Assembly: GCA_964498805.1 (NCBI GenBank)
Contig: CAZCJE010000005.1
Coordinates: 25,176 to 89,175, forward strand
Reading direction: 5' to 3'
DNA: 64,000 bases
DNA from: an uncultured Thiothrix sp.
Lineage (GTDB): Bacteria; Pseudomonadota; Gammaproteobacteria; Thiotrichales; Thiotrichaceae
Shown: one piece after another, positions 44,844 through 63,800 of the stretch
Numbering within the stretch: the first letter of the stretch is position 1
Layout of the letters: each line of letters opens with the position of its first letter
Position numbers and translations under genes: made by a program
Notes under the pieces: model-generated
What the model saw: the letters and a program-made list of their open reading frames with translations, nothing else
Told to the model about the DNA's origin: nothing
Databases searched by the model: none

Positions 44844-44870
44844 AAGCGCGGCTTTATAGCCGCGCTTTTT
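44844..44870. terminator. Bidirectional terminator between the convergent GlsB-family gene and wzc
   Basis: AAGCGCGGCT-TTAT-AGCCGCGCTT followed by TTT; abuts the wzc stop codon. Confidence 0.8.
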
Positions 44871-48452: not shown

Positions 48453-49748
48453 CTAAGAATGTACCGGTACGGCTTTAGCCCTATAAAGCCGACTTACGTG
48501 CCCCAGCACGACCGTATTTTGAATAATGAGTACCAGACAAGTAGCCAGCGCACTGCCCACTAATCCTCCTATAGCGGTTAAGGCTACGGTAGCGACCAAT
48601 GCAAACAGCCCTGTCAGAAAGGTAATATTCCGCAGTAACTTTTCCTGCCCAACCATAATCAGCAATTGTGCAATCGGCCCAGTCACCGCATTCACCAGAT
48701 AACCTAGCGATAAAATCACCAAGATATACCAGAACTGACTGAAACCTTTACCAAAAATCGCCATTAACCATGAAGAGCATAGCACCATTAAGATAAAAGC
48801 GGGTAATGCATACCCTGTAGAAACTTTAATGGTATGCACCAGTACAGGCCAAATTTGCTCGTATTCGCCACGCTTGTGTAAGGCAGCAAAACGCGGCGAT
48901 ACCACCTTATTAATGGCCTGTAAGATTAATCCTAATGAAGCGGCGGTACGGTGTGCAGTGGCCAGTACCGCTACATCGCCTGCGGATAACCACATACCGG
49001 TGACAATTTGTCCTGCCCAACGAATGGTTTGATCCGTCAGCATAATCAGCACTAAAGCCGTTGTACCCGACCATAACTGTTCACGAGTAACCGTTAGTGG
49101 CAACTCTTGATCAATTTGGCGGCCGGACTGGTAAAGGCTATACACCAAACGCAAAGCAACTAGCATGGTGGCAATATTACCCGCCACAAAAATCCACGCC
49201 CCTTGCGAGGCAAACTGCAATTGACCTTGCCACCACCACACACTACCGGCTAATAAAGAAAACAGCGGCAATAACAGGTTTAGCACTACCACCGTCGCTA
49301 ATGGCTTATTCAAACCTTCCAACATATTGCCGCAAGTCATGGAAATCGTCATAGGCACAATAGCCAGCGCCATAATGCGCAAAATAGGCACTAATTCCGG
49401 CTGCTGGAAAAACCAATGCGCCACAGGGTTTGCCAGCAAAGCCAAACCTAGCGCGCCCACACTTGAAGCGGCTGTTACCGCGAGCAAGGCACGGCTAATA
49501 ATAGTGCCGCGTAAATAACCCTCCTGCGGTTGATCATGCGCACCTAGCAATCGCACCACAATACGGTACAACCCCAAAGAACCTAAACCGGATAAAATAG
49601 AAGTGGCTGCAAAACCCAGAAAAAATAGTCCTACTTCATGTTTGCCTAACTGCCGCGACAAAAACACAAAAAATAGGAATAACACGCCTGCCGAGGCTAA
49701 GCGCAGAATCAAAACCATCGATACCGATTTAAACAGGTTTTTGCTCAT
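48453..49748 (-). CDS. Wzx/MOP-family polysaccharide flippase
   Basis: About 12 TM segments; PRFAALHKRG, IFGKGF, LLIMVGQEK typical of Polysacc_synt flippases. Confidence 0.85.
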   Translation of the reverse strand: MSKNLFKSVSMVLILRLASAGVLFLFFVFLSRQLGKHEVGLFFLGFAATSILSGLGSLGLYRIVVRLLGAHDQPQEGYLRGTIISRALLAVTAASSVGALGLALLANPVAHWFFQQPELVPILRIMALAIVPMTISMTCGNMLEGLNKPLATVVVLNLLLPLFSLLAGSVWWWQGQLQFASQGAWIFVAGNIATMLVALRLVYSLYQSGRQIDQELPLTVTREQLWSGTTALVLIMLTDQTIRWAGQIVTGMWLSAGDVAVLATAHRTAASLGLILQAINKVVSPRFAALHKRGEYEQIWPVLVHTIKVSTGYALPAFILMVLCSSWLMAIFGKGFSQFWYILVILSLGYLVNAVTGPIAQLLIMVGQEKLLRNITFLTGLFALVATVALTAIGGLVGSALATCLVLIIQNTVVLGHVSRLYRAKAVPVHS

Positions 49749-49749
49749 G

Positions 49750-50616
49750 TTAGAGCACCTGATAGCCGTAATGAGCTAATCTTTCCGCAGCTACGGCATT
49801 GATCTTGGCAATATCTTCACCACTCAAACGCTTGAGGCTAGACGCATTCATATTCTGAATGGTCGAATTATAACCTGTTACTGAAAGAGTCTGTTGTTGA
49901 ATATCTTTAAGTGGCTCGGCGGAAATACCAATAAAATCGCACACTTGTGCCAATATTTTATCTGGGCTCTCCACCAGTTCTTCATACTGAATCACCAATA
50001 AGCGTTGTAACTTATCCGCATGTGCTTGTAGATATTGATCACTTTCCACCCATTGTTGCGCACACAATTCAATCGGGTAACGCTCAGTGGTGATCGCGGT
50101 ATTAGCCTTACTTACCGGCGATTTACGCCGAATCCCTTCCGAAACGGTATAACCATTACGCACAATGTAGATGAAATAAGCAGGCTGGAAATATTTCTCG
50201 AGAAAACTGACCCGCGCCACATTGGAAATCGACTTTTCCAAAAACACCGGCTTACGTTTGTCATACCAAAAGCCCCAACTGCGCTGGATGCGCTTAGCAA
50301 TAGCCGCATCGGTTTGGGCAGTTTGTTCCAATTGTGGCAAACACTTATGCCACATACGTACCCAACCGCATGCTTCCGGAGTCTGCATACCATCGGTAAG
50401 AAACGCGCCTTCGGTAGGCAATGAAGCGACATCAGGATGACGCGACAGCACTGTACTCAACAAAGTCGTGCCAGAATTGTAGCATCCCAGCACAAACACC
50501 CACTTTTGCGGGGCAGCCTGCGGCCCTAACAAAGCTGTTATCTGCTTACCCATGGAGCTTCTACCCAACCAGGCTTTTACTTTTTTCCACGATTTTATAT
50601 TAGCCACGGTACGCAC
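49750..50616 (-). CDS. PAPS-dependent sulfotransferase (ST2)
   Basis: 5'-PSB VFVLGCYNSGTTLL, FLEKS, 3'-PB FIYIVRNG, IQYEELVESP. Start uncertain. Confidence 0.88.
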   Translation of the reverse strand: MRTVANIKSWKKVKAWLGRSSMGKQITALLGPQAAPQKWVFVLGCYNSGTTLLSTVLSRHPDVASLPTEGAFLTDGMQTPEACGWVRMWHKCLPQLEQTAQTDAAIAKRIQRSWGFWYDKRKPVFLEKSISNVARVSFLEKYFQPAYFIYIVRNGYTVSEGIRRKSPVSKANTAITTERYPIELCAQQWVESDQYLQAHADKLQRLLVIQYEELVESPDKILAQVCDFIGISAEPLKDIQQQTLSVTGYNSTIQNMNASSLKRLSGEDIAKINAVAAERLAHYGYQVL

Positions 50617-51520
50617 TCCAATAATCCTGTTGGGTTAAATTATGCAATTGGCCTTTTTTTATATAACCAGATGCGTATTTTAAAATCTCACGGAATAGCC
50701 AAGCCTGATCCAAACCATCAATCATGTTATGTGGATGCATCCATAAATGAGCCACCTGTTTATGTTCTACCGCATGATCAATAATAGCCTGCCAACGTTT
50801 TAAAATCATAAAATTGGGCGGTAAACGATATTGGCGACGGAATGCCATTAAACTACCACCGGGAATTTTTAAAGGTGAAGCGGCTTTAGGGTGAGGTTGG
50901 GAAACAGTGCCTTCAATATATTTTAAAGCCTCAGCAGCCCAACGCGGCTTCATATCAAAATACAACGGCATATCCCGATAAGCCTGAATACCCGCTTCAG
51001 CCAATAAATCCGTGTAACCCACACGATTACGTGGAAACACCATGGTTTTAATATCCAGCCCTTGCCAAGTTGCCCAAGCATTAATGCCTGCTAGCTCTTT
51101 TTCAATAGCGTCCCGAGAAGTTAGGGATTCTTGAAAAGGTAAATGGGTAAAACCGTGTGTGGCAATTTCATGTTGTTGGTGTTCTCGAACACGGGCAAAA
51201 ATATCCGGTGCGAACCAGCCTTCAGTATTATTTTCTTGCTCTACTTGACGTTTAAAATGATCTAACCAATTTTTACCCGCAAATAAACGTTCAGAGAACC
51301 ATATTTTTTGGCGTAAATAATCTTGTTCACTTAAGGTAAAAGCTGCCACAAATGCAAAAGTAGCCTTAAGATTATAATCGGCTAAGGTTCGTAAAATACT
51401 ATCATAAGCCTTATGCAGGTTCTGATGTGTTAATACCTGATCATGAGAAGGCCCGATACGATCAGCAAATCCCCATTTGCCTTCACAATCCAGCGATATA
51501 ATAAAACATGCCTTTTGCAT
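50600..51520 (-). CDS. Polysaccharide deacetylase (CE4/NodB-like)
   Basis: IISLDCEGKWG, ATFAFVA, HEIATHGFTH, MVFPRN, HLWMHPHN. Confidence 0.85.
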   Translation of the reverse strand: MQKACFIISLDCEGKWGFADRIGPSHDQVLTHQNLHKAYDSILRTLADYNLKATFAFVAAFTLSEQDYLRQKIWFSERLFAGKNWLDHFKRQVEQENNTEGWFAPDIFARVREHQQHEIATHGFTHLPFQESLTSRDAIEKELAGINAWATWQGLDIKTMVFPRNRVGYTDLLAEAGIQAYRDMPLYFDMKPRWAAEALKYIEGTVSQPHPKAASPLKIPGGSLMAFRRQYRLPPNFMILKRWQAIIDHAVEHKQVAHLWMHPHNMIDGLDQAWLFREILKYASGYIKKGQLHNLTQQDYWSAYRG

Positions 51521-51545
51521 AAATCCCTTAGCCCTTAAATAACTA

Positions 51546-52817
51546 TTACGATTTCATTTTAATCGTCAAATGCCATGCGCCATACAATGCTATTCCCAAA
51601 TAGATAGCTATATACTCATTATAAAAACCACGGTAAAGGTTTTGTTCTACAAAAACACTCAACCATGCAGCTACTAGCCATAGCAAATACCGCTCAGCAA
51701 ACGAGTTTTTACTGGCTTTGCGTAATGCCACCCCAATCAGCCACAGAAAAAAGCCATAAACAAATAACAATACTAATAAACCCACAATACCATTAGCTGT
51801 CAACTGATCCAGAAACAGATTATGGATAATATGAATTTTGCCAATTTCATTTTCAATAAAAACTATACCATGACCCTGACCTAAAATAAAACTAGAAGTA
51901 CTCGCAGCTAATGCTTGTTGCGCACCTAGTAAACGTCCTGAGGCACTTTGAGCTTGAATACCCTCCCCGACAAACCCAGCAAAAATCGCTTCCCCTACTG
52001 GTGAAAAAAACAGTATCCCTGCCATTAAGGTCATAGCTAATAAATGAAAGGCAATATATTTACTACGATTAATATAGTAAGCTATCAGAAAAGCCCAGCC
52101 AGCAAATAATCCTAACCAACCACTACGGGATTGCATGATTAAAATGCCAACCACTAATAAAAAAATAAATAATAAACGCCAACGTTTATGCAGCCATTCA
52201 CTCAATAAACCTGGAATTAACAACATGGTTAGAGAAGGTATTAACAGTGTACCCAATTTACCATCACTTAATGGCACACCTGTTGCTTTTCGAATAGGAA
52301 TACGAATACCAAATAAACGTCTACCCATTTCAGAATGAATACCTGTTGAAACCAGCCCAAAACCTTCTAGTATAATTAATATAGATACCACAACTGCACT
52401 GAATAAAATAGCTAGCATTACCCATTTAATGCCATGCTGCGGGTTATTTTGTAAATAACTGACGACTAAGAGTGTTACTATTAGCGTTGTTACACGAGCA
52501 AACACATATTTAAATTCGACCAAAGATTCAAAGCGCATACCATTGATCAAATCAAATACAATTAATAGAAAAAAACATACAATAACGGTATTTATATTAA
52601 TATCCAGTTGTAGATCAATTTTACGAGTAGCAATCTGTAATACTAAAAAACCAAATAAAAAAATAACACTCAATGGTGCTAAAAAGCCTAGCACTGTTTT
52701 GGGTAAAGGAAAAAACGGCACAATGAACAGAAAAAATAGCACACTGATGTCAAAAACAGTGAATGTTGGTTTTTCTTGCCCAAGTGCCAACGCTTGCATA
52801 TTAAAAAGGTAATTCAA
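51546..52817 (-). CDS. Wzy polymerase / O-antigen-ligase-family (Wzy_C) membrane protein
   Basis: About 11-12 TM segments, MQSRSG, LGQGHG, HNLFLDQLTANGIVG. Confidence 0.8.
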   Translation of the reverse strand: MNYLFNMQALALGQEKPTFTVFDISVLFFLFIVPFFPLPKTVLGFLAPLSVIFLFGFLVLQIATRKIDLQLDININTVIVCFFLLIVFDLINGMRFESLVEFKYVFARVTTLIVTLLVVSYLQNNPQHGIKWVMLAILFSAVVVSILIILEGFGLVSTGIHSEMGRRLFGIRIPIRKATGVPLSDGKLGTLLIPSLTMLLIPGLLSEWLHKRWRLLFIFLLVVGILIMQSRSGWLGLFAGWAFLIAYYINRSKYIAFHLLAMTLMAGILFFSPVGEAIFAGFVGEGIQAQSASGRLLGAQQALAASTSSFILGQGHGIVFIENEIGKIHIIHNLFLDQLTANGIVGLLVLLFVYGFFLWLIGVALRKASKNSFAERYLLWLVAAWLSVFVEQNLYRGFYNEYIAIYLGIALYGAWHLTIKMKS

Positions 52818-53715
52818 AATGAATAGGCCCGCTAAAATCCTTAAGTATCTGACAGATAGTTGGTAATTCGTGGTTATTCAGAATACCTTCCCAAAAAAAC
52901 ACGCTTGTCTGCTGACGGTAAGTTTCCATATCTGTGCCACCATGTAAAGTTCTATGCGTCGTCATAGAAGGGGTAAACAGATACGATGGGTGCAAGTTAC
53001 GCCCTGAATATCCTAAAAATTCCAATAACTTATGCGTTTCAGCAAAAGGTTCGGCATACAGCTTTTCATAATTTAGCAAATAAACATCCTTAGCTTCCAA
53101 CTCATCTTTGAGCAATTCATGGGTAACTGCCCACATTAAAGCAGCTTTCTCGAGAGGAGTAGCAACTTTATTTAACCAATGCTGCTTAGCCTGAATACAG
53201 GAGGATTTATACTTTTTATTATAAAACGTTTCTGTTAAAAATTTTTGATAATGAAGATCAAAACCAAACTCAAGCCAAAAACGTGTGCGTTTCTTAATGG
53301 AAGCTAGAACTGCTAGCGGATGGCGAATTGTGAACACTAAACGATAACGCTTACTTTGACGCAGTTCAGCTAGCATCAAATTCAGGCGAATTTCCTTATA
53401 GCCAATAATCTGACATTCTTTCCATAGCTCCGCTTCAAAACCCGGATCAGTATGATCTAAATCGCGTGGCAAATGATTGCGTAACAGCCAGCGATCTGGG
53501 TTATTACCTGCTAATATCCAATCACTATAATTAATGGCTTGATCTAGTAAGGCAGGATTTCCTGATGCATACAGAAAATCCTCGGCATTCACTAAAACAG
53601 CTGGATGAAAAGGCTCAAACAGGATTAACCCACCAAGACTTTTGGAGATAATATCAGAAACCCATGTCGTACCTGAGCGTCCGAAACCCATAATAATAAT
53701 TGGCGGATTATTCAT
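52801..53715 (-). CDS. PAPS-dependent sulfotransferase (ST1)
   Basis: IIIMGFGRSGTTWV, ILFEPF, YKEIR, FTIRHPLAVLAS, LNYEKLYAEP. Confidence 0.9.
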   Translation of the reverse strand: MNNPPIIIMGFGRSGTTWVSDIISKSLGGLILFEPFHPAVLVNAEDFLYASGNPALLDQAINYSDWILAGNNPDRWLLRNHLPRDLDHTDPGFEAELWKECQIIGYKEIRLNLMLAELRQSKRYRLVFTIRHPLAVLASIKKRTRFWLEFGFDLHYQKFLTETFYNKKYKSSCIQAKQHWLNKVATPLEKAALMWAVTHELLKDELEAKDVYLLNYEKLYAEPFAETHKLLEFLGYSGRNLHPSYLFTPSMTTHRTLHGGTDMETYRQQTSVFFWEGILNNHELPTICQILKDFSGPIHFELPF

Positions 53716-53739
53716 GTTTTTAGCCCCCTTAACAATGAT

Positions 53740-54396
53740 TTATTCGTTACCGGATTTTCCGGTTGTAATTAGACGCCAGCCAGTCAAAGCAATAACATTA
53801 ATATATTTCCAGAAACCAAATTTTTGGAAATATTGCAAGTCATAAGGTACTTTTTTTAATTGATCTTCGATAGTAGAACCATAAGGTGCATACAGTTGTG
53901 CCATACCAGTTAAACCAGGTTTAGCCATAAAACGATAATTATAACGAAAATCCAGTTCAATCAAAGGTTCGGCCAAATGTGCCCGAATAGGCCGAGGGCC
54001 TACAATCGCCATATCACCTTTTAAAATATTCCACAATTGTGGTAACTCATCTAAGTGCAATTGACGTAAAACGCGTCCAACACGAGTAACTCGTGGATCA
54101 TCTTTTTGTGCCCACTGAGGTCTCCCTTTTTCTGCATCCACATACATACTTCTAAATTTGATCAGAGTGAATTCTTGTTTACCCAAACCCAAACGCTTTT
54201 GCGTAAACAAGACATTGCCTTTATCTTCAAACCAAATAAGCAACGCTACAATAATAAATAGAGGTGAAGTCACCACCAAACCTATCGCAGCCAAAACAAT
54301 ATCCAGCAAACGCATTGATAAAGTGGCATTTGGAACAGACCCGCTGTGAACTGGCAAATTAGCCAGATAATCTTGCTCAATAAAAACACGTTCCAT
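53740..54396 (-). CDS. Initiating (priming) phosphoglycosyl transferase, Bac_transf family
   Basis: RLLDIVLA, FTQKRLG, KFRSM, DDPRVTRVGRVLR..LDELPQLWNILKGDMAIVGPRP, KPGLTGMAQ. Confidence 0.93.
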   Translation of the reverse strand: MERVFIEQDYLANLPVHSGSVPNATLSMRLLDIVLAAIGLVVTSPLFIIVALLIWFEDKGNVLFTQKRLGLGKQEFTLIKFRSMYVDAEKGRPQWAQKDDPRVTRVGRVLRQLHLDELPQLWNILKGDMAIVGPRPIRAHLAEPLIELDFRYNYRFMAKPGLTGMAQLYAPYGSTIEDQLKKVPYDLQYFQKFGFWKYINVIALTGWRLITTGKSGNE

Positions 54397-54407
54397 CAGA
54401 CTTCCCC

Positions 54408-55592
54408 TCAGTTTAGTGTGCGATAAAGATTCATCTTACGTTCCAGCATCGTTTTTAATTGATGCTCGGCACGAAGACGCTCGACAATTTCAGGCAGATA
54501 AATGTCCCGGGTATACCCCATACGTAAAATCCCAGCTGCCTTATTAACAAAACCCTGAATATCTCCCTGTTTAACGGTAAATTGTTCAAATTGAGAGCCA
54601 AACAATTCCTTTAAGCCTGCAACCTCATAGGCCATAACAGGGATTTTTAATAACATGGATTCAATGACGATATTAGAAAGCCCTTCATAACTAGACGTCA
54701 TAATCACAAGATCGGAGGCTTCCATCACATCATAAACATTGTTATAAAAGCCTGAGAAATGTACATAAGCTTCAAGCCCTAATTGCCTGACCATCGTTTT
54801 TAAACGTTGTTCATAATCAAGTTCTTTTTCAATAAGGGCTTTACCGACAAAAGACAAATGCACATCCAATCCTTGCGCACGCAATTGATGCAAGATTTCA
54901 ATAGCATGTTCATGTTGTTTACCCGGTACAATACGGGCTATATAAGTCATTAAATAGTGTGGTGATTGGCCGGAACACAATTCTTGACGTAATTTTTCCC
55001 GCTCACTATCGCTAATAGGCTTACGATTCAATAAATTATCCGGTTTACCGGTTCTGATAATCACACTATTATCTTCATGGCAAACACCGGCTTGGATATA
55101 TTCTTGTTTAAGTTCCTCACCAATAAAGACAAATTTATCGGTTACTCTACCGGTTAAACGCTCTAAATTACGATAAACCAGCCGAGGTGTAGCCGGTAAA
55201 TGTTGTGGAAACGTAGGCCCGTGAATAGTATGTAAAATATGGGGTGTTTTATTGATTTTACTTGCTGCTAATCGGCCTAATACACCTGCTTTTGCTTGAT
55301 GAGTATGTACAATATCTGGTTTTAATTGCTGCAAAACTTTTTTACAGGCTTGATAAGCTTTTAAATCATTTGCCGGTGATACATGTTTATGCAAACCAGG
55401 AATAATAATGGTTTCTACACCTTCAATCGGAGGTGCATCATTATCCGCGCCAATAATCAATGAAGTTTGAAAACCTTGGGCAACACACTCTTTTAATATA
55501 GCGGTGGTGCGGCGTGTAATACTAGCGCGCTGCTGAAAAGTGGTCAGAATGTGGCAAATGTGCTTCATTGATAAATTTCCAATATAGGCCAA
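54408..55592 (-). CDS. GT4 family glycosyltransferase
   Basis: PDIVHTHQAKAGVLGRLA, HTIHG, ARIVPGKQH, SSYEGLSNIVIESM (Ex7E). Confidence 0.9.
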   Translation of the reverse strand: MAYIGNLSMKHICHILTTFQQRASITRRTTAILKECVAQGFQTSLIIGADNDAPPIEGVETIIIPGLHKHVSPANDLKAYQACKKVLQQLKPDIVHTHQAKAGVLGRLAASKINKTPHILHTIHGPTFPQHLPATPRLVYRNLERLTGRVTDKFVFIGEELKQEYIQAGVCHEDNSVIIRTGKPDNLLNRKPISDSEREKLRQELCSGQSPHYLMTYIARIVPGKQHEHAIEILHQLRAQGLDVHLSFVGKALIEKELDYEQRLKTMVRQLGLEAYVHFSGFYNNVYDVMEASDLVIMTSSYEGLSNIVIESMLLKIPVMAYEVAGLKELFGSQFEQFTVKQGDIQGFVNKAAGILRMGYTRDIYLPEIVERLRAEHQLKTMLERKMNLYRTLN

Positions 55593-55724
55593 TTAATGGT
55601 ACTTTATGGAAACTTATGCACTTAGTCTGTGATTAACTTCACACTTAATTCAAGGTGAAGTTATTTAGGCAAATAGATTAAAAAACAATCAATGGTATTA
55701 AGCTAACGATTTAAGACCGTAAGC

Positions 55725-57389
55725 TTAATTGTTTTTAATAAACCCTAATTGGGTTAGTTTTTGTAAAATGTGTTGCGCACAATCATCCGGTGTTAAGGCC
55801 GTGGTATCGAGCACCATTTCCGGATTAACGGGAACTTCATAGGGGTCATCAATACCCGTGAAACCCTTTACCAACCCCGCGCGGGCTTTAGCATACAAGC
55901 CTTTACGGTCACGCCGTTCGCATTCACTTAACGGTGTAGCCACGTGAATTTCCACAAACCCACCCACTGCACTGATAGTTTCACGCACTTCGCGACGAAT
56001 AGCAGCATACGGTGCAATCGGTGCACAAATAGCAATACCGCCATTTTTGGTAATTTCACTGGCAACATAACCAATGCGGCGGATATTCAGATCACGATGT
56101 TCCTTGGAAAAAGACAACTCACTAGATAAGTTTTTGCGTACCACATCACCATCTAGCAAGGTAACAGGCCGTCCACCCATTTCTAATAACTTAATGCGTA
56201 AGGCATTAGCGACCGTGGATTTGCCCGCACCTGATAAACCGGTAAAAAATATGGTCAAGCCTTGTAAATGGCGTGGTGGGTAAGTTTTCTTCAGTTCGGC
56301 CATGACTTGCGGATAGGCAAACCACTCCGGTACCGGCAAATCTTCATGCAAATAACGCTGGAATTCGCCCGCAGATAAGGCTAAAGCCGCTTCAGAAGTG
56401 CTAATTTCATTTACTGGTCGATAGGCTTGCAGAGCAGGTACGTACTGCATAGCAGCGGGTGTGACAATGCTTATACCGATTTCCTCGGCATATTCGTTAA
56501 CCAGTAATGGTGCAGCAGCCGGGTGGTAGAAAGATTCAGCCCCTTCTTCAGTAACCGGACTGCCTAAACTTTCCTGTACAATGAAATGGGTACAGGCATA
56601 ATTTTTGCGGATGAGGGCATACCATAAGGCTTCGCGTGGCCCCGCCAAACGTACCGCCAGCGGTAATAGGCTGAGCATTACGCTACTTAGCGCATAGGTA
56701 GGCAAAATCTGCTCATAACAGCGCACACGGGTAAAGTGATCAATAGAGCGGCCTACACCACCTAACCCTACCACCGGCTGGATAAGTAATGGAGTTTGTA
56801 AACTTTCCGCCGCCTGCGCTGTTAGCGCTTGTTCGGCCCGATGCATCACTTCCCGCGTGTGGTATCCGAGTACTTGTTGCCAGCCTAATTGTTCAAAGCG
56901 CGCCTTTAACTCAGCAGGCGTGTGCCGGTATTGGCGATAATCATAATGCAGCGGCAACTCAACTTTTTCCAACTTACCGCCCAAATAAACCTTGCCGGTA
57001 CGGTGCAAGAGATAATCCACACCAGGATGATTAGGGTCAGTAGTACCAAATACCGCTTGCGCTTCGGCTTTTTTATCCGCTATCCAACAATCTTCAATGA
57101 GCATGAATGCTAACAACACGCCTTCACTATCACGTAAGGCAATGGTTTGGCCAATATTGAGGTTATCGGCAAACGTTTCGCTTACATCCAGCGTAATCGG
57201 CATAGGCCATAATTGACCATCGGCCAAGCGCATGGAATGTAAAACACGGTCATAATCGGTTTGTTTAAGAAACCCTTGCAAGGGTTTGAAAGCGCCAGTC
57301 AACAACATTTCCACGTCGCATACCTGACGATCGGTAAGATCCCAAGATGCCATTTGCTTGACTAGTGATGAAACAGCCTTGTTATACAT
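55725..57389 (-). CDS. cysC: Sat-CysC fusion: intact adenylyl-sulfate kinase with degenerate ATP-sulfurylase domain
   Basis: Kinase: FFTGLSGAGKST, LLDGDVVR, RDRKGLY, FTGIDDPYE. The sulfurylase scaffold is present (WPMPITL, DHFTRVRCY, AGPREA, RKNYACTHFIV) but the catalytic motifs are altered. Confidence 0.9.
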   Translation of the reverse strand: MYNKAVSSLVKQMASWDLTDRQVCDVEMLLTGAFKPLQGFLKQTDYDRVLHSMRLADGQLWPMPITLDVSETFADNLNIGQTIALRDSEGVLLAFMLIEDCWIADKKAEAQAVFGTTDPNHPGVDYLLHRTGKVYLGGKLEKVELPLHYDYRQYRHTPAELKARFEQLGWQQVLGYHTREVMHRAEQALTAQAAESLQTPLLIQPVVGLGGVGRSIDHFTRVRCYEQILPTYALSSVMLSLLPLAVRLAGPREALWYALIRKNYACTHFIVQESLGSPVTEEGAESFYHPAAAPLLVNEYAEEIGISIVTPAAMQYVPALQAYRPVNEISTSEAALALSAGEFQRYLHEDLPVPEWFAYPQVMAELKKTYPPRHLQGLTIFFTGLSGAGKSTVANALRIKLLEMGGRPVTLLDGDVVRKNLSSELSFSKEHRDLNIRRIGYVASEITKNGGIAICAPIAPYAAIRREVRETISAVGGFVEIHVATPLSECERRDRKGLYAKARAGLVKGFTGIDDPYEVPVNPEMVLDTTALTPDDCAQHILQKLTQLGFIKNN

Positions 57390-57496: not shown

Positions 57497-58894
57497 TTAA
57501 TCTTCGTTCAAGGCATGGTTAACCATGTTATTCACAGGTTTCATCAGGTAAGTCAGGAAGGTACGTTCACCGGTTTTGATAGCCACTTCTGCGGGCATAC
57601 CCTGCACCAGTTCCAGTTTGTGCTTGGCCAAGTCGGCGATTCCTTCTGGCTTGATTTTGATGCGTGCCTTATAGAATTGAGCACCGTTGTTGGGATTGGA
57701 GAAAGTATCAGCAGAAACTTGAATCACCTCCCCTGGTGTTACCTTCATGAAGGATGAGGAATTAAAGGCAGGGAAACGGATATCAGCCTCTAAACCCGCA
57801 TGAACCTTATCGATATCGCTAATATTGACTTGTGCCTCAACTTCAAAACCATCGATTTTCGGTACAATTTCCATAATTTTGCCACCCGGAGGAACAACGC
57901 CACCTTTGGTGTGATATTCCATACCGATCACGGTACCGTTTTCAGGAGCCACAATCGTGGTACGAGATAAACGGTCGGTGACCGCATTCAGACGATTTTT
58001 CAGATCAGCAATATTCAAACGGACCTGTGCAAGTCTGTCAGCCATTTCTTTCTTACGGTTATTGTTTTGCAATACCAATTGCTGCTCGGCTTCACCCATT
58101 TGCACTTTAAGACTGGATTTGGCGGTTTCCAACTCAGCAATATCACTATTGACCGACAGCACACCACGTTCCATTTGATTCAACTCTTGATTACCAATCA
58201 ATTTACGATTAAACAAATCCTGCAGGTTCTGGTGATCCTTAGCGTAAGCATTAGCCAGATTACGTTGACTTTGAATTTGTTTATCCGTGCCAGCCATTTG
58301 TTCTTTCAATTGTTGGATGCGCTGTTTTAACACGCCGGTTTCTGCACTCACCGCGGCCATTTCCACTTTAAACTGCTGACGTTCATCTGCCAGAATTTCA
58401 GCCGCACGCTCTTTAGCTTGCGTCGGATTAATGAGTTCTGCCGGGAAGTTAACGGTGGATTTGCCTTCTAATTGCGCATTCAAACGCGCTTCCAAACCCA
58501 AATAGCCTAACAATTGTTCATATACCATGCCCTTATCGGTTTGCGCTTCAGTCGGGTTAATGACCATCAGCTTTTGCCCTTTTTCGACATGATCACCATC
58601 ATCGACAAAAATGTCTTGAACCACGCCGCCTTCACGGTGCTGGATGATCTGCTTTTTCATCTGCACTTCAATACGACCGGTGGCCATAGCATGACTGCCT
58701 AACGGAGCAACCCCCGCCCACACCGCAAAAATACCAAAGACAACGACCAGTACAATTAAACCTAAGCGCTGGTAAGCAACATCCTCTGTTTGCAGGGGAA
58801 TGACATTATCCGATTTAGCCGGAGCCGGTAGACCAGCGGCAGCCGTGGCAGTAGCGGGAACTTTTGCCGTTTCAATTTTTGCCAGTTGTGCCAT
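57497..58894 (-). CDS. Type I secretion membrane fusion protein (HlyD/AprE/PrtE family)
   Basis: TM, IIQHREGGVV, coiled coil, IVAPENGTV, GGVVPPGGKIMEIVP, GMPAEVAIKTGERTFLTYL. Start 58894 has AGGAGGT. Confidence 0.95.
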   Translation of the reverse strand: MAQLAKIETAKVPATATAAAGLPAPAKSDNVIPLQTEDVAYQRLGLIVLVVVFGIFAVWAGVAPLGSHAMATGRIEVQMKKQIIQHREGGVVQDIFVDDGDHVEKGQKLMVINPTEAQTDKGMVYEQLLGYLGLEARLNAQLEGKSTVNFPAELINPTQAKERAAEILADERQQFKVEMAAVSAETGVLKQRIQQLKEQMAGTDKQIQSQRNLANAYAKDHQNLQDLFNRKLIGNQELNQMERGVLSVNSDIAELETAKSSLKVQMGEAEQQLVLQNNNRKKEMADRLAQVRLNIADLKNRLNAVTDRLSRTTIVAPENGTVIGMEYHTKGGVVPPGGKIMEIVPKIDGFEVEAQVNISDIDKVHAGLEADIRFPAFNSSSFMKVTPGEVIQVSADTFSNPNNGAQFYKARIKIKPEGIADLAKHKLELVQGMPAEVAIKTGERTFLTYLMKPVNNMVNHALNED

Positions 58895-58895
58895 C

Positions 58896-60620
58896 TTACT
58901 TACCTCCTGTACTGGCATCACGTGCGGGTAATTGACTGGTTTTGGCAGCTAACTGCGCCATCACTTGCTGACGATCACCAAATAAGGTGACGGCACCAGC
59001 AACCAGTACCAAAATTTTGTCAACTTGACTCAAAACACCAGGGCGGTGAGAAATAATGACTACCGTCGTGCCTTTTTCGCGCAAAATTTGTAAGGCTTTG
59101 AACAAGGCCAATTCACCAGCTTCATCCAGATTGGAATTAGGTTCATCCAGGACAATCAAGCTAGGGTTGTCATACATAGCGCGTGCCAAGCCAATGCGTT
59201 GACGCTGACCACCAGAAAGAACCCCGCCACTTGGGCCAATCACAGTGTCATAAGCATTAGGCAATTGCAGAATCAATTCATGCACACCAGCCATTTGCGC
59301 CGCCGCCAGGACTTTTTCGGCATCGACTTTATTGAAACGAGCAATATTTTCCGCCACGGTACCATCAAATAATTCAACATCTTGTGGCAAATAGCCAATG
59401 AAGCGCCCTAAAGCATCGCGATCCCAATGGCGGATATCCGCACCATCTAAGCGCACTTCACCAGCTGCTTGTGGCCACAAACCCAATAAAGCCCGTACTA
59501 AGGAAGATTTACCAGCACCACTTGGGCCGACTACTGCCAAAGATTCGCCTGCTTTCAGGCCAAAGGTAATATTGCGCAATACAGCCTCTTTGCCACCCGG
59601 TGGCACCACAGTCAGGTGATGTAAGCCCAAATGACCTTGTGGGGTAGGCAGTTCCATGCGTTGAATATCAGCAGGATACGCTTGCAACATAATATTGAGG
59701 CGTTCCCAAGATTGGCGAGCAGCAGCAAATTGTTTCCACGCACCGACCAATTGATCCAACGGTGACAAGGCACGCCCTAACAAGACAGAACCGGCAATCA
59801 TCATGCCGCCACTCAATTCCATATTAATAACCAAATAAGCCCCCAACCCCAGAATCAGCGATTGGTTGAGCATACGGAAACTTTTTGACAGGGTAGCCAA
59901 TGCACTCGAACGATCATTGCCCAAACCTTGCCACAACAAGGCTTCATTATGGGATTGCTGCCAACGTCTGAAGATACCGCGTTTCACGCCTAAAGCGGTG
60001 GCAACTTCGGCATTGCGCATACTGCGTTCGAGTAACAAACTGGCTTGGGCAGATTTGCCATGGGCTGTTTTTAATATACTGGAGGTAGATTTATCCACCC
60101 ACAAAGCCAACAGGAACGTCATAATGCCTGCGCCGACCCCAAACCAGCCGTACCAGGGATGGAACATGAACATGACAGCAAGGTAAAACGGGAACCACGG
60201 CGCATCAAAAAAGGCAAATACACCCGTACCCGAGATAAAGTTGCGAATGGTATTAAGATCATTCATCGGTTGCAGGGAAGCATTGCGCGGATTATGCAGC
60301 GCGTGGCGGAACATCATATCCACCAATCGCGATTGCATAGCAACATCCATACGGGTACTGATACGGGCTAGAATACGCGTTCGCGCAAACTCCAGTATTG
60401 CCATGACCGCAAACATGGTGACCGTAATCAGCGTTAACATTAATAAAGTGCTTTCACTACGCCCTGCGACTACGCGGTCATACACCTGCAACATGTAAAT
60501 CGTTGGGGTAAGGAATAACATATTGATAAAAAAGCTGAACAGGCCGACATAGAAGAATGACTTCTTAGACAGCATCAGCAGCTTTTTCAATTCAGATGGT
60601 GCGGCTTGATTTGGACCCAT
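58896..60620 (-). CDS. Type I secretion ABC permease/ATPase (PrtD/AprD/RsaD family)
   Basis: YMLQVYDRV, FFDAPW, GPSGAGKSSL, LSGGQRQRIGLAR, LDEPNSNLD; no C39 domain. Confidence 0.96.
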   Translation of the reverse strand: MGPNQAAPSELKKLLMLSKKSFFYVGLFSFFINMLFLTPTIYMLQVYDRVVAGRSESTLLMLTLITVTMFAVMAILEFARTRILARISTRMDVAMQSRLVDMMFRHALHNPRNASLQPMNDLNTIRNFISGTGVFAFFDAPWFPFYLAVMFMFHPWYGWFGVGAGIMTFLLALWVDKSTSSILKTAHGKSAQASLLLERSMRNAEVATALGVKRGIFRRWQQSHNEALLWQGLGNDRSSALATLSKSFRMLNQSLILGLGAYLVINMELSGGMMIAGSVLLGRALSPLDQLVGAWKQFAAARQSWERLNIMLQAYPADIQRMELPTPQGHLGLHHLTVVPPGGKEAVLRNITFGLKAGESLAVVGPSGAGKSSLVRALLGLWPQAAGEVRLDGADIRHWDRDALGRFIGYLPQDVELFDGTVAENIARFNKVDAEKVLAAAQMAGVHELILQLPNAYDTVIGPSGGVLSGGQRQRIGLARAMYDNPSLIVLDEPNSNLDEAGELALFKALQILREKGTTVVIISHRPGVLSQVDKILVLVAGAVTLFGDRQQVMAQLAAKTSQLPARDASTGGK

Positions 60621-60656
60621 GTGGCGTGAACCCTGGCTAGTGAAAAATAATTATGC

Positions 60657-60684
60657 AATGGTTGAGAACAGCCCCTCAACCATT
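60657..60684 (-). terminator. Stem-loop between the surface-protein gene and the T1SS genes
   Basis: Perfect 10-bp inverted repeat AATGGTTGAG-N8-CTCAACCATT; no immediate T-run, so the role is uncertain. Confidence 0.45.
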
Positions 60685-60801
60685 CGCTGTAACTTATCAC
60701 GTCCATAAATAGGCTTATGTGACAACGGTCACGCCAAATGTTTATTTAATAAACGCTTTTATATAAAAATTTTATTGATTAAAAATCATTCAATTTATAA
60801 T

Positions 60802-63800
60802 TCAACGTAAATCAATATCCCAGCGCGTCACAATGATTTCATGTGCCCCATCCGAATCACCCGATAAATTGACCACTCCAGAGTCCTCTTGCATCCGTAA
60901 GAGTAGGTCATAATCCGCATTGAAATTATTGGCTTCGATTCCGGCATTATTCACGTAGGCATCAATCGCCAAATAAGTGCTGCCACCGTAATAAAATTGT
61001 ACCGCCATAGAGGTGTAATCGGCTTTACCATCCCCCGCCATACCGGCATCCACCAATAACGCGGTAATATCGTACTGCTTGTAGGCTCGATCAAGTGCAA
61101 GATTGGCAGCATCCCACAAGCTCATCGCTTCCGGGTCTGGGTCATTAAAACGACTAAACAGGACATCGTAGGACTGACCACTGGTACGGGTCACGCCAGT
61201 TTGAGTGGCAATATCCAATACCTCTAACGGTGCACCAGCATACAGATCGGCGGATAATCCATCCGCATACCAATCCAGATAAATCACATCATGGGTAGTA
61301 TCAGCGGCTACCGCGCCAACTTCATTCAAAGCTCGCTGGTAAGAATAAAAATCAGCGATAGTATCCACCGTATCTTCGCTTATACCCGAGTCCCCAGCCG
61401 TAAAAAAAAATTTATCCTGGCCATCACTACTTCCCGGCATGCCTAAAGTGCCACCGCGCATCACATCTACACCGCGACCGGCAAAAAATAAATCATTACC
61501 GGCATCACCTTGCAAGGTATCATTACCTGCACCACCGGCTAGCCAATCATTACCGCCACCACCTGATAAAATATCGTCACCCTCGCCACCGGATAACAGA
61601 TCTTGTCCTTCACCGCCGCTCAAGGAATCATGCATACCGCCGCCGAATAGCACATCATCGCCTTGACCTGAGGTAATAATATCGTCGCCATCACCGCCAT
61701 AAGCCACCGCACCTTTGCCGGTGAAATCGGTTGGTAATGTACTGAGAGTCGGTAATTGTTTGAGAACTACCTCGCCTTGATTATTGTCACCCAGATCAAT
61801 CCGATCATTGCCTTCACCACCAACTACACATTCATTAGCACTACTTGTACCCATGAATTGGTCATTACCCTTGCCTAGATTAATGGCAAACCCAACTTGG
61901 CCGCCCTGAATCGCATCATCCCCTGCTGAACCTTGCAGAATATCCCCCGCGACTATTTGCAACGTGTCATTGGTCAAATCCTGTCCACGATAAATATCAT
62001 CGTAACGATCCAAAATCTCGACCGTCACCTGACCTAATTGCGCAGATTTAATCTGGCTAAAGTTATAATTACCGGATTCAGCCAATAACAACAGATTGCC
62101 TTGGGACATACCCAAATCGGTAAAGTTGCCGTCCCAAGCCGTCGACAAATCCAAGGTAAAGGTACCGATATTATCAATCCCACCTATGGAAGACATAGCG
62201 ACACCACGCAAATCCAACCCCATCTCAGCGGTTTCTTTGCTCGCATCCAATAAGGTTTTGGTAGCAGATAACTCATTACCGAATAAAAACTCTACACCGT
62301 GATGTAAATTGTTGTTATCCAACTTGAGTACACGCACATTTTCCACATCCAAGCGTTCTATATCGCTAATGGTTAGGCTGGTCAGATCATCATCGCCCAT
62401 TAGATCATGCACAATACTCAGATAATCGCTGCTACTCTCTGAACCCTTGATGCTACGGGTAAACGTCAGCTGGTTTTCCACTTGGCCTAAAATTAAGGAA
62501 TCAGCCTGGTTATAGACAAAGTTGCGGAAGTTGTAATCGCCATCATTTAATTTACTTAGATTCAGGCTACCGCCTTCAATTTCCAAGGTCGACTGACCAA
62601 ATCCACCCGCGGCAAAAACAGTTTGGATCGTTGCTGCATTAGACAAGGTATCGACCAACTTTTGATTGACCTGTAAGGTGGTTTCCACCGCTGTTAATTG
62701 CTGTAGTCGATCAAAACCGGTTAAACCAAAGGCACTGAGATTAAAAGTATCGCCAGCATTAGCCGCTAACTCGAGAGTAGTGGAACGACCTTTAGCCCCT
62801 AATAAATACTCAACACTTTGCAAAGTTTGGGCATTAACTCGGATTTTGCCGCCTTCAACTCGATTTTCCAGCCCTTCAATACTTTCGAGTACCACATTAC
62901 TCACATCCAGCAAACTACCATTGCCCGCATAAACAATCAGATCATCAGCCGGACGCCCTTTGGTATCATAGGATTCAGTGCCACGAATAATCTGGAAGGT
63001 ATCCAAAGCCAAACCGGTATCACCGACCTTGATAGTGGTAGCGGCGGTTTTGTCTTCGGCGCTATAGCCCACCTGCAAAACTTCTATATCCGATATCGTA
63101 TCGTTAGTGACATTCATCAGGTTAAGCGTGGTACTGCTAGTAATTTCTAAGGTATCCATGCCCTGCCCACCATTAATACCTAGCGCATTTTGCACATCCT
63201 GCATGTTTTCAAACAAAATGCGATCATCGCCAAGGCTGCCATCAACACTATCTTTGCGCCCGCCACCGGCTACCAAAATATTGTTTTCCGCATTGCCTAC
63301 CAGTACATCGGCCTGAGCGGTACCGCGTAGATGTTCAACATTGTACAAATACATGCCCGCACTAACCGACACAAACCCGGTGGAAAGATCAGCCTTAATG
63401 CCGGTCGTTAACTTACTGAAATCAACAGTATCTTCACCATAGCCACCATCAATCGTCGCTGTGAGAAGTTTTTTGACCACGAATACATCATCGCCACTTG
63501 TGCCGGTTACATCAAAACGCTGTTTGGCATCGTTTAAAGTAATGTAGTTGCCCGGATTGACATTGGCTGGAATCTTGCCATCAATCCAGTCTTTACACAG
63601 TTGCACGGATTCACTGCTTAAACCACAGCGATCCAACACCTGCCAAGCATTGGGTGAACCATCGCCGTGAGCCACATAATACAAACCGATCTCGGCTTTG
63701 TTATTCAGTAATAAAGCATCATCGCCTTGGGCACCGTTTAACATCGCCACCGCCAGTTCTGCAGACGTGAAATGCGCCAATTCCGTTACCCAGTAGGCTA

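Follow-up and report, generated by a model that had tools for sequence, protein, structure and literature searches.

The fusion gene and its genomic surroundings

The stretch of DNA analyzed here (64 kb, the window) carries a gene for a 554-aa protein in which a PUA-like domain, an ATP-sulfurylase-like domain and an APS-kinase domain are fused (Table 1), and which is preceded by an AAGGA ribosome-binding site 9 nt 5' of its ATG. Pfam assigns PUA_2 to residues 10-143 (1.1e-45), ATP-sulfurylase to residues 153-368 (1.1e-50) and APS_kinase to residues 376-528 (4e-59). Furthermore, the protein scores 816 bits with the NCBIfam equivalog model NF004040 (cut-off 669), and its kinase domain reaches 195.8 bits with TIGR00455 (cut-off 138.7). 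The public name of this protein and of its Thiothrix orthologs is [quoted passage not shown], T. litoralis WP_210221845.1 and Ca. T. phosphatis WP_324694732.1 being among its bearers.

The gene belongs to a co-oriented block (48453-57389) that, according to Pfam, comprises the PAPS-supply gene, a GT4 glycosyltransferase, a priming transferase, two sulfotransferases and proteins of the Wzy and Wzx type. The two sulfotransferases that the earlier note had placed near the fusion gene are indeed there, both matching Sulfotransfer_3 and Sulfotransfer_1. Upstream lie two genes for type I secretion (T1SS) and one for a very large protein with RTX-like repeats, the syntenic counterpart of which in a related locus (L086) matches DUF4214 and HemolysinCabind.

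Table 1. Positions in the window of the fusion gene, its domains and motifs, and the surrounding genes.
Feature	Position	Strand	Basis
PUA / ATP-sulfurylase-like / APS-kinase fusion, whole gene, 554 aa	55725-57389	-	ORF + Pfam
PUA-like N-terminal domain, residues 1-150, complete, 52/53 family-conserved positions	56940-57389	-	
ATP-sulfurylase-like domain, residues 151-370, fold retained, 75/124 conserved positions	56280-56939	-	
APS-kinase domain, residues 371-554, 106/108 conserved positions, 70% identity to T. denitrificans kinase domain	55728-56279	-	
HTRE in place of QTRN, residues 177-180	56850-56861	-	alignment
HRAE in place of HRAH (HxxH motif), residues 183-186	56832-56843	-	alignment
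GGVGRS in place of TKPGD loop, residues 210-215, one residue longer	56745-56762	-	alignment
WYA in place of WHA, residues 256-258	56616-56624	-	alignment
QESLGS in place of GRDHAG, residues 272-277	56559-56576	-	alignment
LSAG in place of ISGT, residues 338-341	56367-56378	-	alignment
Kinase P-loop GLSGAGKST, residues 384-392	56214-56240	-	alignment
Kinase LDGD motif, residues 412-415	56145-56156	-	alignment
GT4 glycosyltransferase, next gene downstream	54408-55592	-	Pfam
Priming sugar transferase (Bac_transf)	53740-54396	-	Pfam
Sulfotransferase 1 (Sulfotransfer_3/_1), GFGRSGTT 5'-phosphosulfate-binding loop	52801-53715	-	Pfam
Wzy-type polymerase / O-antigen-ligase-like membrane protein	51546-52817	-	Pfam
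Polysaccharide-deacetylase-like protein	50600-51520	-	Pfam
Sulfotransferase 2 (Sulfotransfer_3/_1)	49750-50616	-	Pfam
Wzx-type flippase (Polysacc_synt)	48453-49748	-	Pfam
GH123_cat-like protein, weak match, near end of co-oriented island	46900-48438	-	
Wzz/GNVR chain-length protein, weak matches, end of co-oriented island	44869-46854	-	
T1SS membrane-fusion protein, upstream	57497-58921	-	
T1SS ABC exporter, upstream	58896-60620	-	
Protein >1000 aa, RTX-like GGxGxD repeats visible in translation, upstream	60802-63999	-	

The gene order of the island, T1SS genes included, is conserved in two relatives (L086 and L092, 65-66% identity), and in two further loci (L089 and L093) a sulfotransferase directly adjoins the fusion gene. 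On the strand of the fusion gene, a simple scan detected no terminator-like site in the intervals that separate it from the upstream membrane-fusion gene and from the GT4 gene, and the fusion gene is probably co-transcribed with the Wzx/Wzy-type polysaccharide locus. Among the eight loci with members of the degenerate clade described below, five have a sulfotransferase within 10 kb and three have none within this distance; for intact fusions the number is 2 of 80 among the matches listed, a comparison that is biased, as the search was seeded with degenerate loci. Since, moreover, the nearest intact relative of the fusion gene likewise sits in a polysaccharide locus, we do not claim that the association with glycan genes is specific to the degenerate form.

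Motif loss in the sulfurylase-like domain and the intact kinase

In an alignment with 120 close homologs, all six sulfurylase motifs are substituted in the manner that the earlier note had read from the sequence (Table 1), and its statement that the APS-kinase half is intact holds as well, with P-loop and LDGD motif in place and the lid KGLYAKARAG also present. When conserved positions are defined as columns conserved to at least 95% in 102 motif-intact homologs, the protein retains 98% of them in each of the PUA and kinase domains, but 60% in the sulfurylase domain (counts in Table 1). Within the latter domain, the changes are enriched at the motifs, where 9 of 26 positions are kept versus 66 of 98 other conserved positions (Fisher p=0.003), and together with the domain-specific counts this argues that the motif loss is not due to chance. 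As the residues lost are those binding ATP and sulfate, the N-terminal half consisting of the PUA and sulfurylase-like domains is probably non-catalytic. Thr178, Arg179, His183 and the GPREA loop survive, and therefore the sulfurylase-like domain may still bind a nucleotide or sulfate to some extent. The C-terminal domain is predicted to act as an adenylyl-sulfate kinase, which would convert APS and ATP to PAPS and ADP.

The sulfurylase domain of degenerate fusions also evolves faster than that of intact ones. In pairs matched for kinase divergence (70-85% identity), sulfurylase identity is 74% between intact but only 51% between degenerate proteins, whereas the PUA domain is unaffected (59% and 57%, respectively); accelerated evolution is thus specific to the sulfurylase domain. 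This bears on the possibility, implied by the NCBIfam annotation, that the protein has remained a bifunctional PAPS synthase, adenylylating sulfate with non-canonical residues. Its score well above the NF004040 cut-off and the retention of Thr178, Arg179 and His183 would fit such an enzyme. However, besides the domain-specific acceleration, replacements affect Asn in QTRN, the latter His in HxxH, both Lys and Asp in TKPGD, and the entire GRDHAG block, and a protein of Thiobacillus denitrificans with a similar motif score (10/26 versus 9/26) is described, in the title of its publication, as having APS-kinase activity only. We therefore consider residual bifunctionality highly improbable, and as all six active-site motifs are substituted, the protein should not be filed as a functional bifunctional member of the NF004040 type, although its HMM score passes.

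Despite the motif loss, the overall structure appears to be preserved. An AlphaFold2 monomer model has a mean pLDDT of 91, and its N-terminal half superposes on the yeast ATP sulfurylase 1r6x with 1.7 A and a TM score of 0.91; the lowest confidence within the sulfurylase-like domain falls on the GGVGRS block (pLDDT 72). Over the whole length, a single 1-residue indel separates the protein from the intact enzyme of Thiolinea (Thiothrix) eikelboomii. The gene is full-length in 15 of 15 strain variants, and the pooled polymorphisms of these variants give small counts of synonymous and non-synonymous changes (10/4 in the PUA, 8/4 in the sulfurylase-like and 4/0 in the kinase domain), corresponding to pN/pS values of 0.11, 0.15 and 0, respectively. 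The sulfurylase-like domain is thus still folded, as judged from the model, and under purifying selection, as far as the small polymorphism counts go. Moreover, a metatranscriptome (X25) contains contigs that match, at about 99% identity, the fusion gene, the transferase genes downstream of it and the T1SS genes, these being assembled contigs that may include carried-over DNA.

That the gene is a decaying remnant without function could be suspected because the window lineage has lost more active-site residues than its clade relatives. This is barely credible in view of an open reading frame that is intact in the window as well as in 15 variants, pN/pS values of 0 to 0.15 across the three domains, an almost invariant kinase domain, conserved synteny and presence in the metatranscriptome; a pseudogene is contradicted by the full-length frames, the pN/pS values and the metatranscriptome.

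Known counterparts and origin of the degenerate fusion

The earlier note had compared the protein to a fusion of T. denitrificans, and this likeness is borne out by a match to Tbd_0210 (UniProt Q3SM86; PDB 3cr8, "hexameric APS kinase from T. denitrificans") with E=9.5e-137 and by comparable motif loss. According to the title of the study by Gay, Segel & Fisher (2009), Tbd_0210 has APS-kinase activity only. Like the window protein it has lost the catalytic motifs (QARQ/HRAQ), is annotated as bifunctional and comes from a sulfur oxidizer, T. denitrificans being a chemolithotroph with a separate dissimilatory ATP sulfurylase. The two proteins share 70% identity in the kinase, 40% in the PUA and 29% in the sulfurylase-like domain. 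In contrast to the window protein, Tbd_0210 lacks about 26 residues of the PUA region and has a far more diverged dead half, and it is the window gene that is embedded in an operon of sulfotransferase and glycan genes. A second counterpart is the APSK of Entamoeba histolytica (EHI_179080; PDB 23vk/23vl), which likewise combines a non-functional sulfurylase-like domain with a catalytic kinase domain. There, APS is provided by a separate sulfurylase and the dead domain enhances kinase activity (Mi-ichi, 2019; Hatanaka, 2026, preprint). Unlike the window protein, the Entamoeba enzyme is eukaryotic, mitosomal and dimeric, and its inactivation involved a missing substrate-binding loop as well as a shorter linker, whereas the window protein shows substitutions only and no deletions. 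In the literature, the sulfurylase-like domains from T. denitrificans and Entamoeba are called non-catalytic, and it is proposed that they stabilize the hexamer or raise the activity of the kinase. By analogy to both, the dead half of the window protein would most likely serve as an oligomerization scaffold or as an activity-enhancing partner of the kinase domain.

Two further types of enzyme are close counterparts. The Sat-CysC of Aquifex aeolicus (PDB 2gks) can be aligned over the full length (E=1.7e-145) and shares the three-domain architecture, the length and the intact kinase, but it keeps QTRN, HxxH, TKPGD and GRDHAG, all four of which are missing in the window protein, and is bifunctional according to its PDB title. 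The best PDB match (E=3e-157) is to the ATP sulfurylases of Penicillium chrysogenum and yeast (1i2d, 1m8p, 1g8f), which have the same fold (Foldseek E=6.6e-66). The Penicillium-type fusion is also of the Sat-CysC type with one pseudo-enzyme half; however, it is the mirror image, with a dead kinase-like half (P-loop GYMNSGKD) that forms an allosteric site for PAPS, and an active sulfurylase half. As the window protein displays the reverse pattern, with lost sulfurylase motifs and an intact P-loop, it is not a fungal-type ATP sulfurylase with a regulatory kinase-like domain.

Alternatively, the sulfurylase-like domain could be a ligand-sensing or allosteric module, which would regulate the kinase upon binding of, for example, APS, PAPS or a nucleotide, in mirror image of the fungal ATP sulfurylase. 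Such a role would agree with the preserved pocket architecture without any deletion, with purifying selection on the domain and with the modulation of kinase activity by the dead domain of Entamoeba APSK. Furthermore, most members of the degenerate clade have retained, or convergently acquired, particular residues at former active-site positions, namely His at Q177 (88%), H257 (100%), H275 (81%), A276 (94%) and Ser at 277 (69%). Nevertheless, H257, H275 and A276, retained in the rest of the clade, are lost in the window lineage, and therefore any conserved pocket function has eroded there; the His of the WHA motif is retained in all other members of the degenerate clade, and only the window lineage has WYA. 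The remaining former motif positions vary widely among clade members, as expected under relaxed constraint, and a ligand has been shown for no such domain. An allosteric module is thus unlikely, and a scaffold or activity-enhancing partner is preferred.

Given the T. denitrificans precedent, the phenomenon as such is already known; this kind of enzyme has characterized examples in Tbd_0210 and Entamoeba APSK and is common among relatives. Among the 133 nearest representatives of 50%-identity clusters, 86, or about two thirds, have degenerate sulfurylase motifs, and therefore metabolic reconstructions that take such proteins for sulfate activation are probably wrong at large scale. A contig search with the fusion protein returned at least 80 loci; those listed are all motif-intact, with neither a degenerate relative nor the genome of the window itself among the matches listed. 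In a tree of close relatives calculated with IQ-TREE with the sulfurylase columns left out, the window protein falls into a 37-row clade (SH-aLRT 100) together with intact Thiolinea-type enzymes, while the T. denitrificans protein lies outside this clade on a long branch, with uncertain placement. By sequence, the window protein is thus part of a Thiothrix clade that branches from within the intact bifunctional enzymes, apart from Tbd_0210. Orthology with Tbd_0210, in the sense of one shared degenerate clade, is not recovered on this tree, in which the placement of Tbd_0210 is uncertain, and since T. denitrificans falls outside the supported clade, the loss in the window lineage is probably independent of and younger than that in T. 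denitrificans. A single origin of all degenerate fusions is contradicted, as a kinase-only tree of 134 representatives requires 13 state changes, three of them forced by well-supported branches, and the close-relative tree requires four, two of them forced. The ancestor would have been an intact bifunctional Sat-CysC that was already located within a glycan locus, and in which the sulfurylase half, having become redundant, degenerated through point substitutions. The protein hence offers a clean and young case of a pseudo-enzyme, with point substitutions only, an intact fold in the model, continuing purifying selection and, for comparison, a sister lineage whose enzymes are intact. New are both its placement in a Thiothrix clade apart from Tbd_0210 and the conserved island of T1SS, sulfotransferase and Wzy-type glycan genes.

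APS supply and the putative sulfated glycan

As the fusion gene is co-oriented and probably co-transcribed with a polysaccharide locus encoding two sulfotransferases, supplying PAPS for glycan sulfation is its most plausible role. Comparative evidence, i.e., the precedents of motif loss, the 70% identity of the kinase domain, the co-oriented operon and the synteny, lends support to the earlier proposal that the protein makes PAPS for the two sulfotransferases. A comparable arrangement is found in the capsular polysaccharide cluster of Vibrio sp. KMM 8419 (cysNDC and sulfotransferases), where PAPS-supply genes and sulfotransferases also lie inside a polysaccharide locus, which the authors of that study proposed as a hallmark of sulfated glycan synthesis. 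However, loci of the Vibrio type encode the complete route from sulfate to PAPS (CysDN and CysC), whereas the window locus would provide the second step only and depend on external APS. [quoted passage not shown]

Since neither the protein nor its locus would be able to make APS, the cell must provide it by other means. Within the 64-kb window neither sat nor aprAB nor cysDN is present, and tblastn with an intact sulfurylase domain revealed no second sulfurylase copy in the fetched loci and the window. According to published genome surveys, every Thiothrix species carries sat and aprAB, the genes sat, aprB and aprA lying side by side, and the same authors reported Thiolinea and Thiofilum to be devoid of sat and aprAB. 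The Thiolinea fusion is motif-intact, and those of T. litoralis and Ca. T. phosphatis are degenerate. Within the Thiotrichaceae, the degenerate state thus follows the presence of sat-aprAB reported in the literature, which in effect amounts to one evolutionary event, and the contrast between Thiothrix (sat-aprAB reported, fusion degenerate) and Thiolinea (none reported, fusion intact) is a further new aspect. Intact fusions were, among the matches listed, also found in MAGs labelled Chromatiaceae and Woeseiaceae. Genomes with aprAB and sat are known in both families, and the occurrence of intact fusions there means that a dissimilatory APS pool is at most permissive for decay.

Alternatively, APS could originate from an assimilatory route via CysDN, a second intact Sat or a Sat-CysC paralog, so that surface sulfation would not be tied to energy metabolism. 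The very wide distribution of degenerate fusions (86 of 133 representatives) and the use of a separate ATP sulfurylase by Entamoeba would be in line with this. On the other hand, the correlation with reported sat-aprAB within the Thiotrichaceae speaks against it, a reversible dissimilatory Sat would itself yield APS from sulfate, and cysDN was not seen within the 64-kb window. An assimilatory source is therefore rather unlikely, and in a sulfur oxidizer of the Thiothrix type the dissimilatory AprAB/Sat pool of sulfite oxidation is the likely source of APS, as judged from genus-level literature. APS from this pool would be phosphorylated by the kinase to PAPS, which the two PAPS-type sulfotransferases would use to build a sulfated glycan. 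Taken as a whole, we hold with good confidence that the protein is a two-domain APS kinase with a non-catalytic sulfurylase half, which decayed from an intact Sat-CysC and provides PAPS for glycan sulfation from external APS.

Judging from the locus, a filamentous bulking organism of wastewater would carry a sulfated glycan on its surface, which suggests a direct tie of cell-surface chemistry to dissimilatory sulfur oxidation. More tentatively, it is possible that APS made by AprAB is diverted directly by the kinase into sulfation of a surface or sheath glycan, which is laid down together with the RTX/DUF4214 protein exported by the T1SS, and that Sat-CysC decays repeatedly wherever an independent cytoplasmic APS pool is given. 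If so, the motif state of fusions annotated as "bifunctional" would predict the sulfur routing of a genome, and Thiothrix would be indicated as a producer of the sulfated polymers in wastewater sludge. The host itself is a Thiothrix-like sulfur bacterium of wastewater, filamentous bulking organisms of this kind being frequent in wastewater plants. Its FtsA is 90-92% identical to that of named Thiothrix species, slightly outside the range of 92-100% common to the named species.

Sulfurylase motifs in the Sat-CysC fusion and its homologs

The 554-aa Sat-CysC fusion is encoded by a single ORF (see table) and scores 816 bits against the NCBIfam equivalog NF004040, named [quoted passage not shown] (cut-off 669). 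Its top solved relative is the ATP sulfurylase of Penicillium (1i2d, E=3e-157), which aligns end to end, as do the bifunctional enzyme of Aquifex (2gks, E=1.7e-145) and the "hexameric APS kinase" of Thiobacillus denitrificans (3cr8, E=9.5e-137). The earlier note had claimed six substituted sulfurylase motifs beside an intact kinase domain, and both claims are borne out by an alignment with 120 close homologs. The motifs read HTRE, HRAE, GGVGRS, WYA, QESLGS, and LSAG instead of QTRN, HRAH, TKPGD, WHA, GRDHAG, and ISGT, respectively; QTRN, HRAH, and GRDHAG are present in 102 of the 120 homologs, and the other three in nearly all of those 102. In the kinase, neither the P-loop GLSGAGKST nor LDGD is altered. 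Among columns that are at least 95% conserved in the 102 motif-intact homologs, the fusion keeps 52/53 in the PUA, 106/108 in the kinase, and 75/124 in the sulfurylase domain. Within the latter, 9 of the 26 motif positions are retained versus 66 of the 98 others (Fisher p=0.003), and by this comparison the motif loss is not due to chance. The sole indel against the full-length intact enzyme of T. eikelboomii is one 1-residue insertion; to judge from the alignment, the sulfurylase half has decayed by substitution only.

Positions of the fusion gene, its domains and the loci compared (L086, L092, and L093 are homolog loci)
Feature	Position	Strand	Remark
Single 554-aa ORF	55725-57389	minus	ATG start; AAGGA ribosome-binding site 9 nt upstream
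PUA_2	residues 10-143 of the fusion	minus	Pfam
ATP-sulfurylase	residues 153-368 of the fusion	minus	Pfam
APS_kinase	residues 376-528 of the fusion	minus	Pfam
Type I secretion genes and >1000-aa protein	window 57497-63999; L086 1743-8331; L092 1067-4176	minus in window	syntenic
Extra island genes	L086 8381-9931, 11669-14936; L092 4234-5775, 7516-10788		without window counterpart
Neighborhood of the degenerate APS kinase P0061	L093 2622-8656

That the protein is still bifunctional, as the family model and public names would have it, is unlikely with all six motifs replaced: NF004040 scores the motif-dead protein well over its cut-off, and the degenerate Thiothrix orthologs P0304, P0306, and P0082 carry the same "bifunctional" name, which by their motifs is a systematic over-annotation. 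The scale of this mis-annotation is a useful by-product of the analysis. Degenerate motifs occur in 18 of the best 120 homologs. In an IQ-TREE tree computed without the sulfurylase columns, 16 of these 18, including the window protein, form one clade (SH-aLRT 84), with T. litoralis and Ca. T. phosphatis as named members. It is sister to the T. eikelboomii-type and Thiolinea MAG fusions, which are motif-intact, within a clade of support 100. The partly degenerate P0021 and P0086 branch apart, and the T. denitrificans protein lies outside the support-100 clade on a long branch. With HMMER, 1.84 billion cluster representatives were searched exhaustively, and motifs were scored in the 133 proteins of 400-700 aa among the best 150 hits. 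The motif scores are bimodal: 40 representatives are intact and 86 keep at most 13 of the 26 positions (77 of them with intact kinase motifs), a two-thirds share that is inflated by the degenerate query and by fast-evolving sequences yielding more 50% clusters. State changes on a kinase-only tree number 13, at least three of them forced by well-supported branches (33 with shuffled labels). These figures indicate that sulfurylase decay is common in Sat-CysC fusions and probably arose several times. The opposite pseudo-enzyme was also found among these hits: P0259, P0266, and P0275 keep the sulfurylase motifs with a destroyed kinase P-loop and DGD, like the fungal ATP sulfurylase.

Fold and selection of the degenerate half

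In an AlphaFold2 model from a 40-sequence alignment (mean pLDDT 91), the replaced TKPGD loop is the only weak block of the sulfurylase-like domain (pLDDT 72). The modeled N-terminal half superimposes on truncated yeast ATP sulfurylase 1r6x with 1.7 A and TM 0.91, and the full chain matches 1i2d, 2gks, and 3cr8. A pseudogene is unlikely, as the strain polymorphism of the gene, though counts are few, argues clearly against neutral decay. All 15 natural variants with at least 98% identity are 554 aa long, and their residues vary at 7 sites of the PUA domain, 12 of the sulfurylase-like domain, and a single site of the kinase domain. Strain differences from five metagenome or metatranscriptome assemblies comprise 10/4, 8/4, and 4/0 synonymous/non-synonymous codons, respectively, i.e., a pN/pS of about 0.11, 0.15, and 0 on small codon counts. 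At matched kinase divergence, the sulfurylase domains are 74% identical in intact and 51% in degenerate pairs, with the PUA the same in both, which points to a constraint on the degenerate core that is loosened, not abolished. As modeled, the dead half remains a folded domain under selection. Over window positions 56954-57063, coding for PUA, three metagenomes hold pairs of alternative 110-base contigs, one with 0-2 differences from the window and the other with 8; therefore two strains or alleles coexist in the same plants.

At several former active-site positions, the degenerate homologs conserve a different residue (His for Gln177, Ser at 277). It is possible that the old pocket is now a regulatory ligand-binding site; however, the window lineage lacks H257, G265, H275, and A276 (nt 56562-56621), which 81-100% of the other 16 degenerate homologs retain. 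A pocket function may survive in some members of the clade and have been given up by the window lineage.

The glycan and secretion island

The fusion gene is the fourth in a co-oriented minus-strand run, after genes for a >1000-aa protein, a T1SS ABC exporter, and a membrane-fusion protein. It is followed by a GT4, a Bac_transf priming transferase, sulfotransferase 1, a Wzy-like and a deacetylase-like protein, sulfotransferase 2, a Wzx flippase, a protein with a weak GH123_cat match, and a Wzz/GNVR protein. The translation of sulfotransferase 1 contains the 5'-phosphosulfate loop GxxRSGTT and the 3'-phosphate motif RHPLAVLAS. Elsewhere, the 64-kb window carries housekeeping genes (dcw cluster, secA, ffh, rimM-trmD, and others) and no sat, aprAB, or cysDN. 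The exporter pair directly upstream keeps its order in two relatives (65-66% protein identity). In the window and in L086 it is preceded by the >1000-aa protein, which has RTX-like GGxGxD repeats in the window and matches DUF4214 and HemolysinCabind in L086. This conserved adjoining of secretion and glycan genes suggests that a secreted surface-layer-type protein is made along with the glycan.

The island recurs around the homologs P0004 and P0003, 65-66% identical to the window protein. There, the T1SS genes are followed by a methyltransferase gene, the gene for the degenerate kinase, three genes of epimerase/dehydratase type, and GT4; next come the priming transferase, a sulfotransferase, Wzy, a deacetylase-like gene, and two sulfotransferases. 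The extras in L086 and L092 are the ~515-aa methyltransferase (MethyTransf_Reg), the epimerase/dehydratase genes around the kinase gene, and the third sulfotransferase; they are absent from the window, and the lineages probably make different glycans. Directly downstream of the T. litoralis-type gene, a sulfotransferase is encoded on the opposite strand, and the homolog P0061 adjoins Sulfotransfer_2 and Sulfotransfer_3 genes. Around the latter (L093), the 565-aa Sulfotransfer_3 protein and the Sulfotransfer_2 protein are accompanied by AMP-binding, PP-binding, radical SAM, and Rv2949c-like proteins, and the cluster looks as if it makes a sulfated lipid or small molecule and not a glycan. No sulfotransferase lies within 10 kb at three other degenerate-clade loci. 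L091 (1844-5441), likewise without a sulfotransferase near its degenerate-clade gene, has a sulfatase and a radical-SAM/SPASM protein, a possible sulfatase maturase, 2-4 kb away. In L088 (9004-9699), a DHH-family phosphoesterase, encoded just upstream of a degenerate-clade gene and on the opposite strand, is a candidate phosphatase of pAp, which arises as a by-product of sulfotransfer. The nearest intact relative, from the MAG labeled Thiothrix sp. Bin_56_1 that groups with Thiolinea, likewise lies in a polysaccharide locus (Wzy, UDP-sugar dehydrogenase, aminotransferase, flippase). Supplying PAPS to modify glycans therefore looks like the ancestral role of this family, the change in Thiothrix being the loss of the first step.

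The sludge metatranscriptome X25 contains 85% of the sampled words of the fusion gene. Its contigs, ~99% identical to the window, cover this gene, the GT4, priming transferase, sulfotransferase, and upstream T1SS genes, and one joins the start of the fusion gene to the 3' end of the membrane-fusion gene. A simple scan of the flanking gaps found nothing resembling a terminator on the strand of the fusion gene. This supports expression, although X25 consists of assembled contigs in which carried-over DNA is possible. Of the locus's sampled words, 84-97% occur in about twenty metagenomes from wastewater and one from aquaculture, drawn from many studies. The window FtsA clusters at ≥90% identity with T. 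nivea, T. fructosivorans, T. caldifontis, T. winogradskyi, and others; as it is 90-92% identical to named Thiothrix, which share 92-100% among themselves, the organism is by this marker a Thiothrix or a lineage just beyond the named species.

Probable source and use of APS

Published comparative genomics reports sat and aprAB in all Thiothrix species, in two wastewater species as adjacent aprA, aprB, and sat separate from the fusion gene, whereas Thiolinea disciformis, T. eikelboomii, and Thiofilum flexile lack sat and aprAB but have other dissimilatory sulfur genes. This distribution matches the motif states, the Thiothrix fusions being degenerate and those of Thiolinea intact, and fits the earlier proposal of a kinase fed by the Apr/Sat route, which predicts a degenerate fusion in a genome with sat-aprAB. 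The match is one phylogenetic contrast and not universal, as the matches listed include intact fusions in MAGs labeled Chromatiaceae and Woeseiaceae, families with Apr-bearing members.

We consider it quite probable that the fusion is a kinase-only enzyme making PAPS from cytoplasmic APS. AprAB (from sulfite and AMP) and the reversible Sat would create an APS pool, from which the fusion would draw and phosphorylate APS and so provide the operon's two sulfotransferases with PAPS, a testable link from sulfur oxidation to sulfation at the surface of a filament that is common in wastewater. By analogy, the sulfurylase-like half probably persists as oligomer builder or kinase stimulator: in T. denitrificans this domain has been proposed to build the oligomer, and in Entamoeba deletion and mutation showed that the dead domain stimulates the kinase. 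Since APS kinases with a dead sulfurylase have been reported from T. denitrificans (2009) and E. histolytica (2019, 2026), the phenomenon is not of a new kind. Unlike those enzymes, the Thiothrix fusion is far less diverged, was inactivated without deletions, probably derived independently, and is encoded in an island for a predicted sulfated glycan, to which type I secretion genes are coupled.
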